Source: Candidatus Aenigmatarchaeota archaeon (GTDB taxonomy: Archaea; Aenigmatarchaeota; Aenigmatarchaeia; QMZS01). From it: a stretch of DNA of 64,000 nt. Of this stretch, positions 26,012-37,156 are shown piece by piece. A program made the position numbers and the translations under genes. The notes under the pieces are model-generated. The model did no database searches, was not told the DNA's origin, and was given only the letters and a program-made list of their open reading frames with translations. The stretch lies in NCBI GenBank assembly GCA_023134135.1, contig JAGLVB010000003.1:98218-162217 (forward strand). Reading direction: 5' to 3'. Position 1 is the stretch's first letter. Each line of letters begins with the position of its first letter.

Positions 26012-26443
26012 TTAAGGAGTTTCCTTTTTTATTTCCAATATAAATTGATTCCAGATTTTTGGAATGCTTTTTGCAAGTTGGGTTAAGGAAGATTCCTCAA
26101 GCATAAACCCATATCCATGAATGAAAAAATGCCTAAAAGCAAGATATTCTCTGAGTTTATCTGCTAAATCCTCAGATATAATTTTATGTTTCACTGAAGT
26201 TTCCAGTATTTTTTTATGCCACATATCCGATTTTTGAATCTCTATATTTTTTGATTTTAAAATTTGTTTTAGCATATTTTCAATTCCATTGTAAATATTA
26301 TGCATGAATGTGGCTGTTGCGGATAATTCAATAACAGACTTTTTCTTTTTTTTCATGACTTGTTTCAAATTTTCAAGCACTATATTTACATTTTCTTTTT
26401 CTGCATCAATTTTCTCTAATAAATTACCCATATATCTTTTCAC
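26012..26443 (-). CDS. hepT: HepT-like (DUF86/HEPN) RNase toxin
   Basis: AFRHFFIHGY matches Rx4HxY. It overlaps the upstream nucleotidyltransferase gene. Confidence 0.7.
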   Translation of the reverse strand: MKRYMGNLLEKIDAEKENVNIVLENLKQVMKKKKKSVIELSATATFMHNIYNGIENMLKQILKSKNIEIQKSDMWHKKILETSVKHKIISEDLADKLREYLAFRHFFIHGYGFMLEESSLTQLAKSIPKIWNQFILEIKKETP

Positions 26444-26693
26444 CTTCTTTTTCCACTAATTCGTTAAATTTGGATTTTTTTGAGATATCCACAAGGTCAA
26501 CATTTTTTGGCAGATTTTTTATTAATTCAGCGTAGAATTTAAAGAATAATTTTGGTTTAATTCCTTTTATTCCAATATCAATATCATTATATTTTTTGTT
26601 TTTTTCAATAGAAGAGCCAAATAAGTAAAGAGAAGAAACTCTGTACTTTTTTGCGCATTTCAAAATAATCTTTTTCTCATTGGGTTTTATCAT
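26424..26693 (-). CDS. mntA: MntA-like minimal nucleotidyltransferase antitoxin
   Basis: LYLFGSSIEKNKKYNDIDIGI fits the GS...DxD NTase motif. 89 aa, with a 20-nt overlap with hepT. Confidence 0.7.
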   Translation of the reverse strand: MIKPNEKKIILKCAKKYRVSSLYLFGSSIEKNKKYNDIDIGIKGIKPKLFFKFYAELIKNLPKNVDLVDISKKSKFNELVEKEGEKIYG

Positions 26694-27257: not shown

Positions 27258-28151
27258 CTAAGGAGTCTTCCGAATAATCTCGTAGTAAGTCACATCTCCT
27301 TCATCATCAACAACAGCCCATAACATCTTTGCTCTAATATTGTGCGCTAATCTAACCGCTCTGGATAATTCTGGGAAAGAACATGTGTAATTTTCGGGTA
27401 TTGCGTGAACAATCCATTTTGTGTGTTCTCTCACTGATTTTGGACCTCTCTTTAATTTTACCCCTCTTGCGTAAACCCTGAAGTGAGTGCCGAACTTGAA
27501 CCCGGTTCTCACAAGAAGACCCCGACCTCTGAGTTCTTCATATACTGTAAATTTCCATGGGAATTCTTTGTCCTGCAAGCAGGCATATTCATAAAATTCC
27601 TCAACATTTAATTCTTTTTTATTTTCATAGATTTTCAGTTTATTTCTTTTTGCAAGCACAAGAGCTTCTTCAAGGGAGAGTTCATTTTTATCATCTTTGA
27701 TTTTTCCAAAGCATCCATAATCATAAATTTCTTCTCCATCAGTTTTGTCAAATATGTAAATTTTATTTTCAAGAAGAGTTCCTTTGTAGGTTTTCTTTGG
27801 TTCTCTTTTAAATTTGTTGGATTCTTCTGAAGAACTTTCCTGAGCCTCTTCATTTTCCGGGAAAATCTCTTCGCAGCTCAAAGGTTTAATCTCTTCTACT
27901 TCTTCTGTTTTCTTGGATTTCTTTTTTACTTTATCCGTTTTAGGTTCATTAGTTTTTTTTGATATTCTTTTTTCTTTGGAAACTTTTTTTGTTTTGGCGG
28001 AGGATTCTTTTTTAACTTTAACCGCAGTTTTTTTGGTTACTTTCTTTTTTGCTTTCTTTTCAATCTGAGCATCATCCAAAAATTCCTTTTCCTCAATTAT
28101 CTTGGTTTTCTTTTTGCTGACTGTCTTTTTGGTTTCTGTTTTCTTTCTCAT
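27258..28151 (-). CDS. endA: tRNA-splicing endonuclease (single alpha-type unit) with a ~110-aa Lys-rich N-terminal extension
   Basis: The C-terminal catalytic region FRVYARG...HTKWIVHAI...RLAHNIRAKMLWAVV carries Tyr/His/Lys triad positions. The N-terminus is KKTxKK-type low complexity. Confidence 0.75.
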   Translation of the reverse strand: MRKKTETKKTVSKKKTKIIEEKEFLDDAQIEKKAKKKVTKKTAVKVKKESSAKTKKVSKEKRISKKTNEPKTDKVKKKSKKTEEVEEIKPLSCEEIFPENEEAQESSSEESNKFKREPKKTYKGTLLENKIYIFDKTDGEEIYDYGCFGKIKDDKNELSLEEALVLAKRNKLKIYENKKELNVEEFYEYACLQDKEFPWKFTVYEELRGRGLLVRTGFKFGTHFRVYARGVKLKRGPKSVREHTKWIVHAIPENYTCSFPELSRAVRLAHNIRAKMLWAVVDDEGDVTYYEIIRKTP

Positions 28152-29364: not shown

Positions 29365-29412
29365 CTTTTTTGGGTGCAGACCTTTAAATTAACTGAACAA
29401 ATAAAGGGTTGC
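29365..29412 (-). repeat. Hairpin module copy 1 (tRNA-Leu 3' trailer)
   Basis: Minus strand: GCAACCCTTT-N-AAAGGTCTGCACCCAAAAAAG, starting 2 nt after the tRNA discriminator base. Confidence 0.8.
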
Positions 29413-29414
29413 AA

Positions 29415-29603
29415 TGCAGGAGGACGGAATTTCATTCACCCAAATAATTGCCTTTTTTGGGGTGCAGACCTTTTTCAATAATTGCATTGAAAAGGGTTGC
29501 TTCGAACCGTCGAACTCACTAAGAGACTGGATCTTGAGTCCAGCGCCTTTTTCTGTAACAAAGTCAAACTGACTTTTATCTGACCAGACTTGGCTACTCC
29601 TGC
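29415..29603 (-). tRNA. tRNA-Leu(CAA) with two non-canonical introns (D-loop ~30 nt; T-loop ~72 nt near position 58-60)
   Basis: Minus strand: GCAGGAG-TA-GCCAAGTCTGGTCA[insert]AGGCG-CTGGA-CTCAAGA-TCCAG-TCTCTTAGTGAGTTC-GACGG-TTCGAA[insert]T-CCGTC-CTCCTGC-A. The 7/7 acceptor stem, 5-bp anticodon stem and 5-bp T stem are all Watson-Crick. It also has U33, G37 and a class II variable arm. No 37/38 intron and no encoded CCA. Confidence 0.7.
29452..29500 (-). repeat. Hairpin module copy 2 (5' part of the tRNA-Leu T-loop intron)
   Basis: Minus strand: GCAACCCTTT-N-AAAGGTCTGCACCCCAAAAAAG, starting immediately after T-loop TTCGAA. The ends match copy 1; the interior differs but still forms a hairpin. 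Confidence 0.8.
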
Positions 29604-29704
29604 ATAATATTGTTACTATTTTTTATTTGCCTTTAATCTGGAATTAGATAAAGTTATCTATATTTGTGTTTTAAAAAAAATAAGTAAAAATTAAAAAAAC
29701 TGAA

Positions 29705-31105: not shown

Positions 31106-32383
31106 ATGACTTGGGATACCGGATATGGGGATTTAAAGGGAACAAAAAATTACTCAACAAAAAAGCAGATTTTGAGAGAGGATATTATAAAAATCATAAA
31201 AAAAGTTCTTGAAAAATACGGGTTCAATCCAATAGAAACCCCAATACTCCAGCTTTATTCTCTGCTGTCTTCAAAGTACGGAGGAGGCGAGGAAATTTTA
31301 AAGGAATGTTATCAACTTAAAGACCAGGGAAAAAGAAGTCTTGGTTTGAGATATGAACTCACAATAACTCTTGCGGGTTTTCTAAAAGAAAACCAAAATT
31401 TAAAGATACCTTTCAAGAGATATGAAATCGGGAAAGTTTTCAGGGACGGACCAATAAAACAATCAAGGGTAAGGGAATTTACGCAGATTGATTTTGATGT
31501 TGCGGGAGTAAAATCAGAACTTGGTGAACTTGAAATTCTTTCAATCTTTGAGGAAGTTTTCAAAAAATTAAATTTTGATATTGAGATACAACTGAACAAC
31601 AGGAAGATTCTTATTGGGATGCTTGAATATGCGGGAATAAAGGATAACCAAAATTCAGTTATTCTTTCAATAGACAAACTTGAAAAAATAGGGAAGGAAG
31701 GAGTTGGAAAAGAGCTCACGGAGAAAGGTCTGAAAGAAGAACAGATAGAAAAGATTTTTGAGGTTCTTGAAATAAAAGGAACTAATGAAGAAATACTTTC
31801 AAAATTAGGAGAATTATTGAAAACAGAAACTGGTAAAGAAGGAGTTGAAGAATTGGGAAAACTCTTTGAATTAATTGAAGTTTATAATCTTGAAAAAGTA
31901 ATATTAGTTCCTTCTCTTGCAAGAGGTCTGAATTATTACACCGGAACAATTTATGAAGTATTCTCAAAGGAAAAAACAAGTTCTTCTTTGGGGGCGGGAG
32001 GGAGATTTGATGAATTGCTTTCAAAATCACTTGGAAGAGACCTACCTTCTGTTGGGGGTTCATTCGGTCTTGATGCAATTTCTTCTGTTATTGAATCAGA
32101 TAAAAAATCAAACACTCAGGTTTATTTGATTCCTGTTGGAATTCCCGATGAAAAATTTCTCCCAGTTGTGAAAAAACTAAGGGAAAAATTAAATGTTGAT
32201 TTTGATTTATCCGGAAGGGGGATAAGCAAAAATCTTGAGTTTGCAAATGCTAACAATATTCCTTTTTGCGCAATTCTCGGAGAAAAGGAGATGAAAGAAG
32301 GAAAAGTCAAATTAAAAAACATGAACACAAGGGAAGAAAACCTTTTAAGTATTGATGAAATTGTTAAGATAATTCAAGGGTAG
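31106..32383 (+). CDS. hisS: Histidyl-tRNA synthetase
   Basis: LRYELTITLAGF, FRDGPIKQSRVREFTQIDFDVAG, ARGLNYYTG and GGRFDEL class IIa motifs, plus a C-terminal anticodon-binding domain. Confidence 0.9.
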   Translation: MTWDTGYGDLKGTKNYSTKKQILREDIIKIIKKVLEKYGFNPIETPILQLYSLLSSKYGGGEEILKECYQLKDQGKRSLGLRYELTITLAGFLKENQNLKIPFKRYEIGKVFRDGPIKQSRVREFTQIDFDVAGVKSELGELEILSIFEEVFKKLNFDIEIQLNNRKILIGMLEYAGIKDNQNSVILSIDKLEKIGKEGVGKELTEKGLKEEQIEKIFEVLEIKGTNEEILSKLGELLKTETGKEGVEELGKLFELIEVYNLEKVILVPSLARGLNYYTGTIYEVFSKEKTSSSLGAGGRFDELLSKSLGRDLPSVGGSFGLDAISSVIESDKKSNTQVYLIPVGIPDEKFLPVVKKLREKLNVDFDLSGRGISKNLEFANANNIPFCAILGEKEMKEGKVKLKNMNTREENLLSIDEIVKIIQG

Positions 32384-35719: not shown

Positions 35720-37156
35720 TTATCCCTTAACAACCCCCATAGGAACAACCCTTACAACTTTCTTGGAAATTCCCGCCAGGTCAACGGATTTTATCACTTC
35801 ATCAATATCTTTGTAAGCGTTCGGGGATTCCTCCGCGAGAACTTTGGGGGATGTTGCTTTTGCGATAATTCCTTCTTTCATCAAGTCTTCTTTTACTGTG
35901 TTTCCCCGGAAATTTCTTATTGCTTTCCCCCGGCTCATCACTCTCCCGGCTCCGTGACAACTTGAGTAAAAAGTATCCTTTGCGTTTTCGCCCCCAACTA
36001 AAATATAACTTGCAGTTCCCATTGAGCCCGCAATTAATACAGGCTGACCAACTTTCATATAGGTTTTGGGAAGCAGTTCATGTCCCGCAGGAAGACTTCT
36101 TGTTGCTCCTTTCCTGTGAACATACAATTTTCTTTTCTCCCCATTGACTTCATGTTCTTCAAGTTTGCAGATATTGTGGCACACATCATACATTAATTTC
36201 ATATCAAGTTCATCTCTCGTTCTCCCGAAAATTCTTTCAAAGCTTTCTCTTACCCAGTCTGTCATCACAGTCCTGTTGCAGAAAGCATAATTGACCGCTC
36301 CTTTCATTGCCTCAAAGTAATCCTGACCTTCCTGCGAGTTTGTCGGGGCGCATACTAACTGAGGGTCGGGAAGTTTAATATTGTATTTCTTTGATGCTGC
36401 TTCATGAATTTTTAAGTAGTCTGTGGCAATCTGGTGCCCAAGACCTCTTGAACCGCAATGGAGCATTATTACCACCTGATCTTTTTTAGTTATCCCAAAA
36501 ACTTCAGCAGTCTTTGAATCAAAAATATCATCAACTTTCTGGATTTCAAGGAAGTGATTTCCTGAACCTAAAGTTCCTAATTGTGGAAGACCTCTTTTCT
36601 TTGCCAGTTCGGAAATTTTATCTGTGTTTGCTCCTTTGATGCAACCATATTCTTCCATGTGCTCCAAATCTTCTTTTTCAGCGTAATTGTTTTTAAGAGC
36701 CCATTTTGCCCCGTTGTTTAAAACCTCTTCAAGTTCATCATTGGAAATTCTTAATTTTCCTTTTGACCCAACTCCGGTTGGAACATTTTTAAACAAAAGG
36801 TCGATTAATTCTCTTAATTTTGGTTTTACTTCATTATAAGTCAGATTTGTTTTAATCACCCTGATTCCGCAGTTTATGTCAAAACCTGTGCATCCGCAGG
36901 AGATTATCCCTTCTTCTGAATCAAATGCCCCCACAGCGCCCATTGGCAATCCATAACCCCAGTGAATATCAGGCATCCCGCACACAGGTTCAACAACTCC
37001 GGGGAGACAGGCAACATTTGTGAGCTGTTTAATTGCTTCATCTTCAATCTGATTCCTGACTTTCTCAGTAGCGATTATTTTCGCATTTACTCTCATCCCT
37101 TCTCTTTCTTCTTTTGAAATTGAGTATTCAAATTCAGAGACTTTCTTGACTTTCAT
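35720..37156 (-). CDS. rtcB: RNA-splicing ligase RtcB
   Basis: GSGNHFLEIQ, HCGSRGLGHQ and SSCHGAGR motifs; 478 aa. Confidence 0.92.
   Translation of the reverse strand: MKVKKVSEFEYSISKEEREGMRVNAKIIATEKVRNQIEDEAIKQLTNVACLPGVVEPVCGMPDIHWGYGLPMGAVGAFDSEEGIISCGCTGFDINCGIRVIKTNLTYNEVKPKLRELIDLLFKNVPTGVGSKGKLRISNDELEEVLNNGAKWALKNNYAEKEDLEHMEEYGCIKGANTDKISELAKKRGLPQLGTLGSGNHFLEIQKVDDIFDSKTAEVFGITKKDQVVIMLHCGSRGLGHQIATDYLKIHEAASKKYNIKLPDPQLVCAPTNSQEGQDYFEAMKGAVNYAFCNRTVMTDWVRESFERIFGRTRDELDMKLMYDVCHNICKLEEHEVNGEKRKLYVHRKGATRSLPAGHELLPKTYMKVGQPVLIAGSMGTASYILVGGENAKDTFYSSCHGAGRVMSRGKAIRNFRGNTVKEDLMKEGIIAKATSPKVLAEESPNAYKDIDEVIKSVDLAGISKKVVRVVPMGVVKG

Follow-up and report, generated by a model that had tools for sequence, protein, structure and literature searches.

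A tRNA-Leu(CAA) gene interrupted in the D-loop and the T-loop

We analyzed a 64,000-nt stretch of contig JAGLVB010000003.1 from a Candidatus Aenigmatarchaeota archaeon (referred to below, at its full length of 64 kb, as the window, whose coordinates are used throughout), and here describe a tRNA-Leu(CAA) gene on its minus strand (29415..29603) that is interrupted in both the D-loop and the T-loop. The precursor is 189 nt long and the spliced sequence 86 nt; CCA is not encoded and the discriminator is A73. With the introns in parentheses, the gene reads GCAGGAG-TA-GCC-AAGTCTGGTC(AGATAAAAGTCAGTTTGACTTTGTTACAGAA)AAA-GGC-G-CTGGA-CTCAAGA-TCCAG-TCTCTTAGTGAGTTC-GACGG-TTCGAA(GCAACCC...GGGTGAATGAAAT)T-CCGTC-CTCCTGC-A. 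Exon 1 (GCAGGAGTAGCCAAGTCTGGTC; 29582..29603) comprises the 5′ strands of the acceptor and D stems and the D-loop as far as G18 G19 U20 C20a. It is followed by a 31-nt D-loop intron (29551..29581) that lies after GGUC, at about position 20a/20b with boundaries uncertain by 1 nt, and that holds a 7-bp hairpin, AAAGTCA-GTT-TGACTTT. Exon 2 (29501..29550) runs from AAAGGCG through the anticodon arm (CAA), the long variable arm and the 5′ strand of the T stem to T-loop positions 54-59 (TTCGAA). A 72-nt T-loop intron at position 59/60 (29429..29500) then separates TTCGAA from TCCGTC, and exon 3 (29415..29428) supplies U60, the 3′ strands of the T stem (CCGTC) and acceptor stem (CTCCTGC), and A73. 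All stems are intact: acceptor GCAGGAG/CTCCTGC, D GCC/GGC, anticodon arm CTGGA-CTCAAGA-TCCAG and T GACGG/CCGTC, with a variable arm of 15 nt.

An earlier, sequence-only reading of this DNA had proposed a minus-strand cloverleaf that appears once two inserts are removed, one of about 30 nt with a hairpin in the D-loop and one of about 72 nt in the T-loop, leaving a mature tRNA of about 86 nt with no intron at 37/38. Each of these elements was found where that reading had placed it, the D-loop insert being refined to 31 nt. The same reading had expected default tRNA finders to miss the gene, and this proved correct. ARAGORN reported 0 tRNAs in the raw 64-kb window, also with its options for anticodon-loop introns, and with intron options and lowered thresholds on the raw locus it returned nothing or spurious calls. 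Rfam searches of the raw DNA gave no tRNA match at gathering thresholds, at E≤10 for the locus or at E≤1 for the window, and no other Rfam family matched at the locus or anywhere in the window. When both inserts were removed, ARAGORN called tRNA-Leu(caa), and the refined boundaries gave 86 nt. The gene thus escapes standard finders because its D-loop and T-loop are interrupted. When all 64 kb were searched for a 7/7 acceptor stem combined with a T arm, either uninterrupted or with an insert at 59/60, 3 candidates emerged; only 29415..29603 yielded a tRNA, and the other 2 lie inside coding sequence.

Folding of the 189-nt precursor without constraints recovered the tRNA helices (acceptor, D, anticodon, variable and T). 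It also showed the two central helices of the splice motifs described below and the hairpins of the introns, among them that of the module with which the T-loop intron begins. The precursor folds with z = -3.96, a stability that 0 of 200 shuffled sequences equalled, and the spliced RNA with z = -3.05. These results confirm the original observation and support its interpretation as a gene with two introns.

Orthologous genes and intron turnover

The metagenome-assembled genome (MAG) CSMAG_2581 (L035) has the same gene in the same context: its exons and D-loop intron are essentially identical to those of the window, and its T-loop intron differs at 6 positions. More copies were retrieved from metagenomes with a pattern made of exon sequence alone, the gene's first 20 nt, and an identical 20-nt 5′ end was found in 5 metagenome loci. 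Given as D-loop/anticodon-loop/T-loop, the intron lengths are 31/0/72 nt in the window, 31/54/71 nt in L035, 31/52/106 nt in L043 and 164/65/95 nt in L044. The contig of L040 ends early; it has a 22-nt D-loop intron and an anticodon-loop intron, and no T-loop intron was seen on it. Once spliced, each of the four full-length genes is 86 nt long and is recognized as tRNA-Leu(caa); the spliced sequences of the window, L035 and L043 are the same. L044 differs from them by one base in the variable arm and by a two-sided change of T-stem pair 50:64 from A-T to G-C. The changed pair spans the T-loop intron, the signature of a working tRNA. The preservation of exons in L035 and L043 while the introns differ, together with the compensatory stem change, is the pattern left by purifying selection. 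A similar contrast is seen in a contig from a further metagenome (X3), which has 0 changes over a 71-nt segment that runs from exon 1 through the D-loop intron into the first part of exon 2, as against 10 in the next 95 nt upstream.

The absence of an intron at 37/38 sets the window apart, since every relative sampled has one; contigs from three further metagenomes (X2, X3 and X4) carry an insert exactly at this position. The absence in the window is thus probably a precise loss and a derived state. No form lacking the D-loop or the T-loop intron was found among the contigs of four metagenomes. An intron-less tRNA-Leu(TAG) gene in L042 has the D arm GCCAAGTCTGGTTAAAGGCG, with a 13-nt D-loop, as expected. 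Orthologous tRNA-Leu genes that differ in the number (2 vs 3) and content of their introns make gain, loss and turnover testable in one clade. One further locus, L041 (contig OMKS01084978, from 262, minus strand), has a tRNA-Leu 5′ exon followed by a D-loop insert with a variant of the module described below, and no recognizable downstream exons within 330 nt; this locus may represent an intron of great length, one half of a split tRNA, or a relic.

The region upstream of the gene (29604..29680, minus strand) contains an A/T-rich, promoter-like block, and TTAT abuts +1. Over these 77 nt, 76 bases match L035, with one 1-nt indel, and the last 40 nt are the same in L043. TTAT also stands directly 5′ of 15 of the 17 credible tRNA genes recovered from the window (29604-29607) and L001-L044; an A/T-rich block lies about 20-30 nt upstream. 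Such an arrangement suggests that transcription starts at +1 and that these tRNAs would be leaderless. Leaderless tRNAs are known from Nanoarchaeum equitans. We saw no match to RNase P RNA in the window.

Splice motifs and splicing enzymes

All boundary pairs were scored for bulge-helix-bulge (BHB) geometry, in which a 4-bp central helix (H) lies between an outer helix (h) and an inner helix (h′) and each strand is cut 2 nt 3′ of H. For the T-loop intron, one boundary pair only (59/60) yields a proper T arm. There H is U54U55C56G57:UGAA (4/4), h is the 5-bp T stem and the bulge is AU|U60, which makes a strict h-B-H at the 3′ site. At the 5′ site (AA|G) the stable module hairpin follows directly. 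A helix ACCC:GGGU, which the sequence-only reading had singled out at this junction, is indeed the candidate h′. It is set off from H by unpaired bases, however, so the motif is relaxed on its 5′ side.

The same 3′ arrangement recurs in relatives. Among 22 T-loop introns that start with the module and whose 3′ ends were set by a script, 3 (L012, L022 and L038) were spurious. The 19 that were kept come from at least 9 isoacceptor types and from 12 MAGs. All of them close with YGRA and 2 nt before U60, and their H pairs 4/4 in 16 cases and 3/4 in 3. The 3′ strand of H varies (TGAA, TGGA, CGGA, TGAG, CGAA) yet still pairs 4/4 in those 16 of 19, as against about 3% expected by chance for a random 4-mer.

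For the D-loop intron, the register GGTC|A...AA|AAAGGC gives H = CUGG:ACAG (3/4), bulges UC|A and AA|A, and either GAUAAA:UUUGUU (6 bp) or the 7-bp hairpin AAAGUCA/UGACUUU as h′. Applied to relatives, this register gives a 4/4 H in L040 (CCGG), with an h′ of 6 and a textbook H-bulge-h′ in the 5′ half, and again a 4/4 H in L044 (CUGG). The 3′ strands of H thus differ (ACAG, CCGG, CTGG), all of them opposite CUGG. The mature D arm in all is GCCAAGTCTGGTC^AAAGGCG (^ marks the exon junction), which fits the 13-nt D-loop of the L042 tRNA-Leu(TAG). An alternative register one base earlier, UCUG:CAGA (4/4, 85-nt product), is less likely because its h′ is not adjacent and its D-loop would be shorter than that of the intron-less relative. 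BHB motifs, which the sequence-only reading had suggested looking for at both junctions, are present in a relaxed sense, and they are kept in relatives despite sequence change.

The window encodes both enzymes of BHB splicing. The tRNA-splicing endonuclease EndA (27258..28151, minus strand) matches PF01974 (E = 5.6e-25) and PF02778 (E = 7.7e-13), covering N- and C-terminal domains. It looks like a single α-type unit, with a Lys-rich N-terminal extension of about 110 aa. The closest structures are those of the Methanocaldococcus jannaschii α4 enzyme (1a79, E = 1.4e-27) and the catalytic α subunit of N. equitans (3iey, E = 5.1e-27). A 6-residue basic insertion (KLKRGPKSV) lies just before the conserved EH motif, whose His we take to be the catalytic His; the insertion aligns with that of the N. 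equitans α subunit and is absent in M. jannaschii α4. Such a single α-type EndA with a Lys-rich extension apparently must cut the relaxed D- and T-loop motifs. Elsewhere in DPANN archaea, α4-type enzymes with an extra loop co-occur with heavily disrupted tRNA genes (PMC5829648). The tRNA-splicing ligase RtcB (35720..37156, minus strand; 478 aa) matches PF01139 over its full length (E = 1.2e-173). EndA is encoded 1.3 kb from the tRNA gene, and RtcB 6 kb from the tRNA gene and 8 kb from EndA. The RtcB coding sequence mimicked a T arm in the 64-kb scan.

A hairpin-plus-tail module shared by introns and intergenic DNA

The T-loop intron opens with GCAACCCTTT-(16-20 nt)-AAAGGTCTGCACCCCAAA, a module of about 45 nt (29456..29500, minus strand; 68.6 bits against a covariance model) that occupies its 5′ end. 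The module has the form GCA-AC-CCTTT(T)...(A)AAAGG-TC-TGC: an outer stem GCA/TGC, a 2x2 internal loop, and an inner stem CCTTT/AAAGG capped by a variable apical part, after which comes the tail ACCCCAAA. The window contains only one other copy, in the trailer of the same gene (29368..29412, minus strand; 58.4 bits), which starts 2 nt after the tRNA 3′ end and ends in the tail ACCCAAAA. The two copies are 88 nt apart and agree in stems and tail; their apical loops differ, which argues that they did not arise by local duplication. The trailer copy lies within a segment of about 50 nt that L035 and the X2 contig (joint 29356→29413) lack at the corresponding site, with no target duplication. This presence/absence is a single case of insertion polymorphism, as would result from gain or loss alike. 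The trailers of L008 and L030 (same tRNA) start TT-TCAACCCTTTATTG..., which looks like the module's first half placed 2 nt past the discriminator, and may hold a decayed copy.

When one genome per prokaryotic species was scanned with a sequence pattern, the module turned up in 38 loci of 12 MAGs, with 1 chance match in a Clostridia genome. The covariance model recognizes about 50 strong copies in these 38 loci, and diverged ones besides. An exact retrieval pattern inflates the apparent conservation of the stems, so that the unbiased evidence comes from the tail, from covarying variants and from exon-anchored orthologs. Diverged or pattern-independent copies show covariation of the outer stem (TGA/TCA, GTC/GAC, AAA/TTT, TGAG/CTCA, GAAG/CTTC) while retaining the tail A(C/G)CC(C)AAA. 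Four further contigs from the source metagenome, at the same depth (27-29x), carry T-loop-plus-module copies that differ in the apical loop only.

Among the stronger copies, about 25 come right behind T-loop position 59 or within a few nt of it, 4 follow GGTC(A/T)A in D-loops, and about 20 are outside tRNA genes. T-loop introns with the module occur in Leu, Tyr, Gly, Ser, Met, Asn, Gln, Ala and Glu tRNAs; the D-loop introns of L022, L029 and L033 contain it as well, and variant copies are present in the anticodon-loop introns of L043 and L044. Every intron copy has the sense orientation and lies within 0-2 nt of the 5′ cut. Outside tRNA genes, copies point either way with respect to the genes beside them; some are in tandem, and several border directly on the start codon of a gene on the opposite strand. 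It is the module alone, not whole introns, that recurs in the manner of a transposed intron family.

Several intergenic copies have notable surroundings. Antisense copies in L009 (1132-2764), L020 (721-1242), L018 (4346-4395) and L031 (193-256) end 0-8 nt before the next start codon, and the genes that follow such copies include ParE-type toxin-antitoxin operons (L009), a class II aminoacyl-tRNA synthetase (L018) and a 1318-aa open reading frame (ORF). In L009 and L020 the module loop reads TTTATATAA, a perfect TATA-like sequence that lies about 22 nt upstream of an ATG on the opposite strand. Tandem arrays with identical sequence between copies occur in L013 (6070-6187), L015 (56-162, inside a T-loop intron) and L024 (4378-4874). 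From the array in the L015 intron it appears that introns can grow by tandem duplication of the module. Other modules made of a hairpin and an A-rich tail also stand at intron 5′ ends, namely TAAGG...CCTTA with AGCAAAAGAAA, and GAAGACTTTCTTTC..GAAAGAAAGTC with CTCAACNTCAAAGAAA (L029, L033, L022, L043, L035). The tRNA-Ser(UGA) genes of L029 and L033 have 3 or 4 introns, including a T-loop intron at 54/55; the gene in L022 is a tRNA-Leu(UAG).

We considered several identities for the module and set them aside. A general promoter is contradicted by inconsistent orientation, by many loops that are not A/T-rich and by the lack of sequence resembling a transcription factor B recognition element. A CRISPR repeat resembles the hairpin and 8-nt tail, but the "spacers" between tandem copies are identical. 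The boxes of C/D-box and H/ACA guide RNAs are absent. The derivation of helix H from a target-site duplication of the palindromic TTCGAA fails for T-loops with TTCAAA. TCAA, which precedes the module in each of the three tRNA loops, is absent at intergenic copies and was therefore rejected as a common insertion target. The L035 anticodon-loop intron and the L043 T-loop intron resemble each other too weakly to form one sub-family. A scan of viral contigs gave no match to the module, and thus no sign of a viral source; literature searches with strings of its sequence returned unrelated primers only.

A model for the maturation of tRNA-Leu(CAA)

Taken together, the gene anatomy, the orthologs, the conserved exons with their compensatory change, the 3′ motif rule and the presence of both enzymes lead us to regard this as a genuine, functional, cis-spliced tRNA-Leu(CAA) gene with two introns, at a probability of about 0.85. 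A single 189-nt precursor would be transcribed, and two protein-spliced introns of BHB type would then be removed. T54-G57 would pair with UGAA near the 3′ end of the T-loop intron to form a 4-bp central helix; stacked on the T stem, this helix would put the 3′ cut, AU|U60, into a 3-nt bulge of canonical form. On the 5′ side, the cut A58 A59|G would fall between the central helix and the stable hairpin, which begins with the intron's first nucleotide. Within the D-loop, C17-G19 would pair with ACAG, the cuts would be UC|A and AA|A, and the intron hairpin would abut the 5′ bulge. EndA would cut and RtcB would ligate the exons, giving an 86-nt class II tRNA. We infer that cleavage occurs at exactly these bonds and that EndA accepts the relaxed motifs.

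Several observations weigh against this picture and against mobility of the module within it. The strict hBHBh′ motif forms at neither intron. At the D-loop intron H pairs only 3/4 and h is 1 bp; at the T-loop intron h′ is not contiguous with H. The close ortholog L035 has a T-loop H of only 3/4. The single α-type class of EndA is classically held to need strict BHB motifs. Searches of RNA runs yielded none with the window locus or that of a relative, and a metatranscriptome from a relative's study had 0 reads on that relative's tRNA. As for the module, tblastn with an approximate IS608-like TnpA query detected no Y1 transposase in the window and 45 loci (about 390 kb), and we saw neither a target-site duplication nor a shared target sequence at its intergenic copies.

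Two other accounts of the gene have to be set against cis-splicing. The T-loop insert contains a dispersed repeat that is also found in the trailer, and the BHB motifs are relaxed, which is what one would expect if a tRNA-Leu gene had been inactivated by repeat insertion, with UUG read by an intron-less tRNA-Leu(CAA) or through wobble by tRNA-Leu(UAA). We consider such a pseudogene very unlikely: the exons are 100% identical in L035 and L043 despite differing intron and flanking DNA, L044 has its compensatory T-stem change, and the X3 relative keeps 71 nt unchanged next to 95 nt with 10 differences. The same intron architecture is moreover present in relatives in tRNAs for at least 9 amino acids, which cannot all be dead, and no intron-less form appeared in the four metagenomes. 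That the gene is not cis-spliced at all, but is a split, trans-spliced tRNA with an internal promoter in an A/T-rich module loop, or a tRNA that retains the inserts as expansions, is scarcely credible. We know of no precedent for a separately transcribed 14-nt 3′ tRNA exon. Some relatives do have perfectly TATA-like module loops, such as that of L009, and split tRNAs exist in the DPANN member N. equitans (PMC4090602). The exons here, however, are contiguous and co-oriented, only 31 and 72 nt apart, and the module loop in the window's intron copy is not TATA-like. An insert retained at 59/60 would break the interaction between T-loop and D-loop, and the conserved rule of YGRA plus 2 nt is a prediction of BHB splicing in cis.

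The cis-spliced reading leaves the part played by the module to be considered. From its distribution we read it as a putative proliferating, non-autonomous hairpin element or a portable 5′ cassette of introns, which would persist in tRNA genes because it is placed in splice-competent contexts, and a second copy of which may have landed in the trailer of tRNA-Leu(CAA). It is apparently not required for splicing at these positions, since the D-loop intron of the window lacks it. More tentatively, the module may be the vehicle of intron gain in Aenigmatarchaeota tRNA genes, a mobile unit of about 45-50 nt that spreads by DNA insertion or RNA reverse-splicing and survives where its hairpin and a short complement to the local loop form a splice-competent BHB. 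This is possible but doubtful. If true, all stages would be visible: free intergenic copies, a freshly landed trailer copy, and domesticated introns in the D-, anticodon and T-loops.

The module could instead be a functional part of intron RNA, a helix beside the 5′ bulge that aids the DPANN endonuclease at non-canonical sites, or a domain that binds protein or forms stable circular RNA, with intergenic copies as by-products or as targets of the same factor. Intron copies that are all sense and 0-2 nt past the 5′ site, whether in the T-loop, the D-loop (L029, L033) or the anticodon loop (L043, L044), would fit such a role, as would stems that covary while loops drift and a tail, CCAAA, that is nearly invariant even though it lay outside the search pattern. 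tRNA-Asn orthologs from three MAGs likewise retain stems and tail in introns that otherwise differ. We hold this account, too, to be no better than tentative. The D-loop intron of the window does without the module, and the T-loop intron of L043 begins without it, though perhaps with a different hairpin-tail subfamily. Intergenic copies in both orientations (sense in L026; antisense in L009, L018 and L031) and tandem arrays fit a single RNA role poorly, and the selection of copies by an exact pattern inflates the conservation on which the account draws.

Comparison with known systems

Multiple non-canonical introns have been described mainly in Thermoproteales and a few other archaea. In Thermoproteales, up to three BHB-type introns per tRNA are reported, at non-canonical positions including the D- and T-arms, as are closely similar introns across isoacceptors and positions (Sugahara et al. 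2008 and Fujishima et al. 2010, as summarized in PMC4090602 and bioRxiv 10.64898/2026.10.13.758758). The genes described here share with these the multiple non-canonical introns, intron sequence common to different tRNAs, and invisibility to standard finders. In contrast to Thermoproteales, which belong to the TACK group, the host is a DPANN archaeon, and what is common is only the 5′ hairpin-plus-tail module, not the whole intron. Unlike the Thermoproteales families, the module is also found outside tRNA genes, in both orientations, in tandem, and present or absent between close relatives.

Disrupted tRNA genes in DPANN archaea have been linked to EndA of broad specificity, either the ε2 enzyme of ARMAN-2 (PMC3239211, PMC3488258) or α4-type enzymes with an L3 loop (PMC5829648); Aenigmatarchaeota were not among the genomes analyzed in these three studies. 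The present case resembles those systems in its small DPANN genome, its multiple non-canonical introns and the extra basic insertion in the catalytic domain of EndA, as in the N. equitans α subunit. It differs from the three-unit ε type of ARMAN-2 in that EndA is a single α-type unit with a long Lys-rich N-terminal extension, and its insertion is a candidate counterpart of the published L3 loop. A census of Asgard archaea in 2026 found many hidden D-arm introns missed by annotators, at BHB-competent sites and with gains and losses between close lineages; families common to several tRNA types were almost nil (1.5% at 80% identity), with no link to mobile elements and no route of arrival (bioRxiv 10.64898/2026.10.13.758758). 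A common module, by contrast, pervades the introns of Aenigmatarchaeota. The tRNA-Thr of Caldiarchaeum subterraneum offers another parallel, for there also the number of introns in the same gene varies between close genomes; a mobile-element origin was proposed, with a 1.8-kb recombinase-encoding element as the agent (PMC3293823). Here the recurrent unit is instead a non-coding hairpin of about 45-50 nt with no linked recombinase.

Among mobile repeats, the module can be compared with REP/PATE elements. The likeness lies in a non-coding imperfect hairpin with conserved stems, compensatory changes and a variable loop, in intergenic dispersal, sometimes as tandem or inverted pairs, and in the lack of target-site duplication at the one site where filled and empty states can be compared. 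REP/PATE are short hairpin repeats mobilized by Y1 (IS200/IS605-type) transposases, whereas the DNA examined here yielded no cognate transposase with the approximate TnpA query, and no conserved intergenic target sequence. To our knowledge, a strong association of REP/PATE with the 5′ ends of tRNA introns has not been described.

The origin of protein-spliced tRNA introns is an open question, on which a module common to three tRNA positions, many isoacceptors and intergenic DNA bears directly. What is new and noteworthy here is the module, its intergenic copies, and the turnover of introns among near-identical orthologs; a literature search found no description of Aenigmatarchaeota tRNA introns or of a hairpin-plus-tail module. 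There is also a practical side. tRNA counts are used to grade the quality of MAGs and to infer "missing" tRNAs in DPANN archaea. ARAGORN with intron options called 1 tRNA in the window and L001-L045, a tRNA-Arg with a canonical intron in L034, where at least 20 tRNA genes with T-loop introns are present. The tRNA counts of Aenigmatarchaeota MAGs must therefore be badly underestimated.

Host and genomic neighbourhood

The neighbours of the tRNA gene are archaeal by Pfam: a pseudouridine synthase of TruB/Cbf5 type, an M54 peptidase (archaemetzincin family) and EndA. The GC content is about 32%, and the sequence is present at 100% in a cold-seep metagenome run. The conserved piece of the T-loop intron was found almost only in MAGs labelled Aenigmatarchaeota, together with 1 labelled Nanoarchaeota and 2 labelled "uncultured archaeon". 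The host thus belongs with the DPANN archaea, as an Aenigmatarchaeota-like member, and not with the Thermoproteales. An ORF at 31106-32383 resembles histidyl-tRNA synthetase when its translation is read by eye, and two small overlapping ORFs at 26012-26693 (minus strand) are, also by eye, a candidate nucleotidyltransferase/HEPN toxin-antitoxin pair (motifs GSS...DIDI and RHFFIHGYG).

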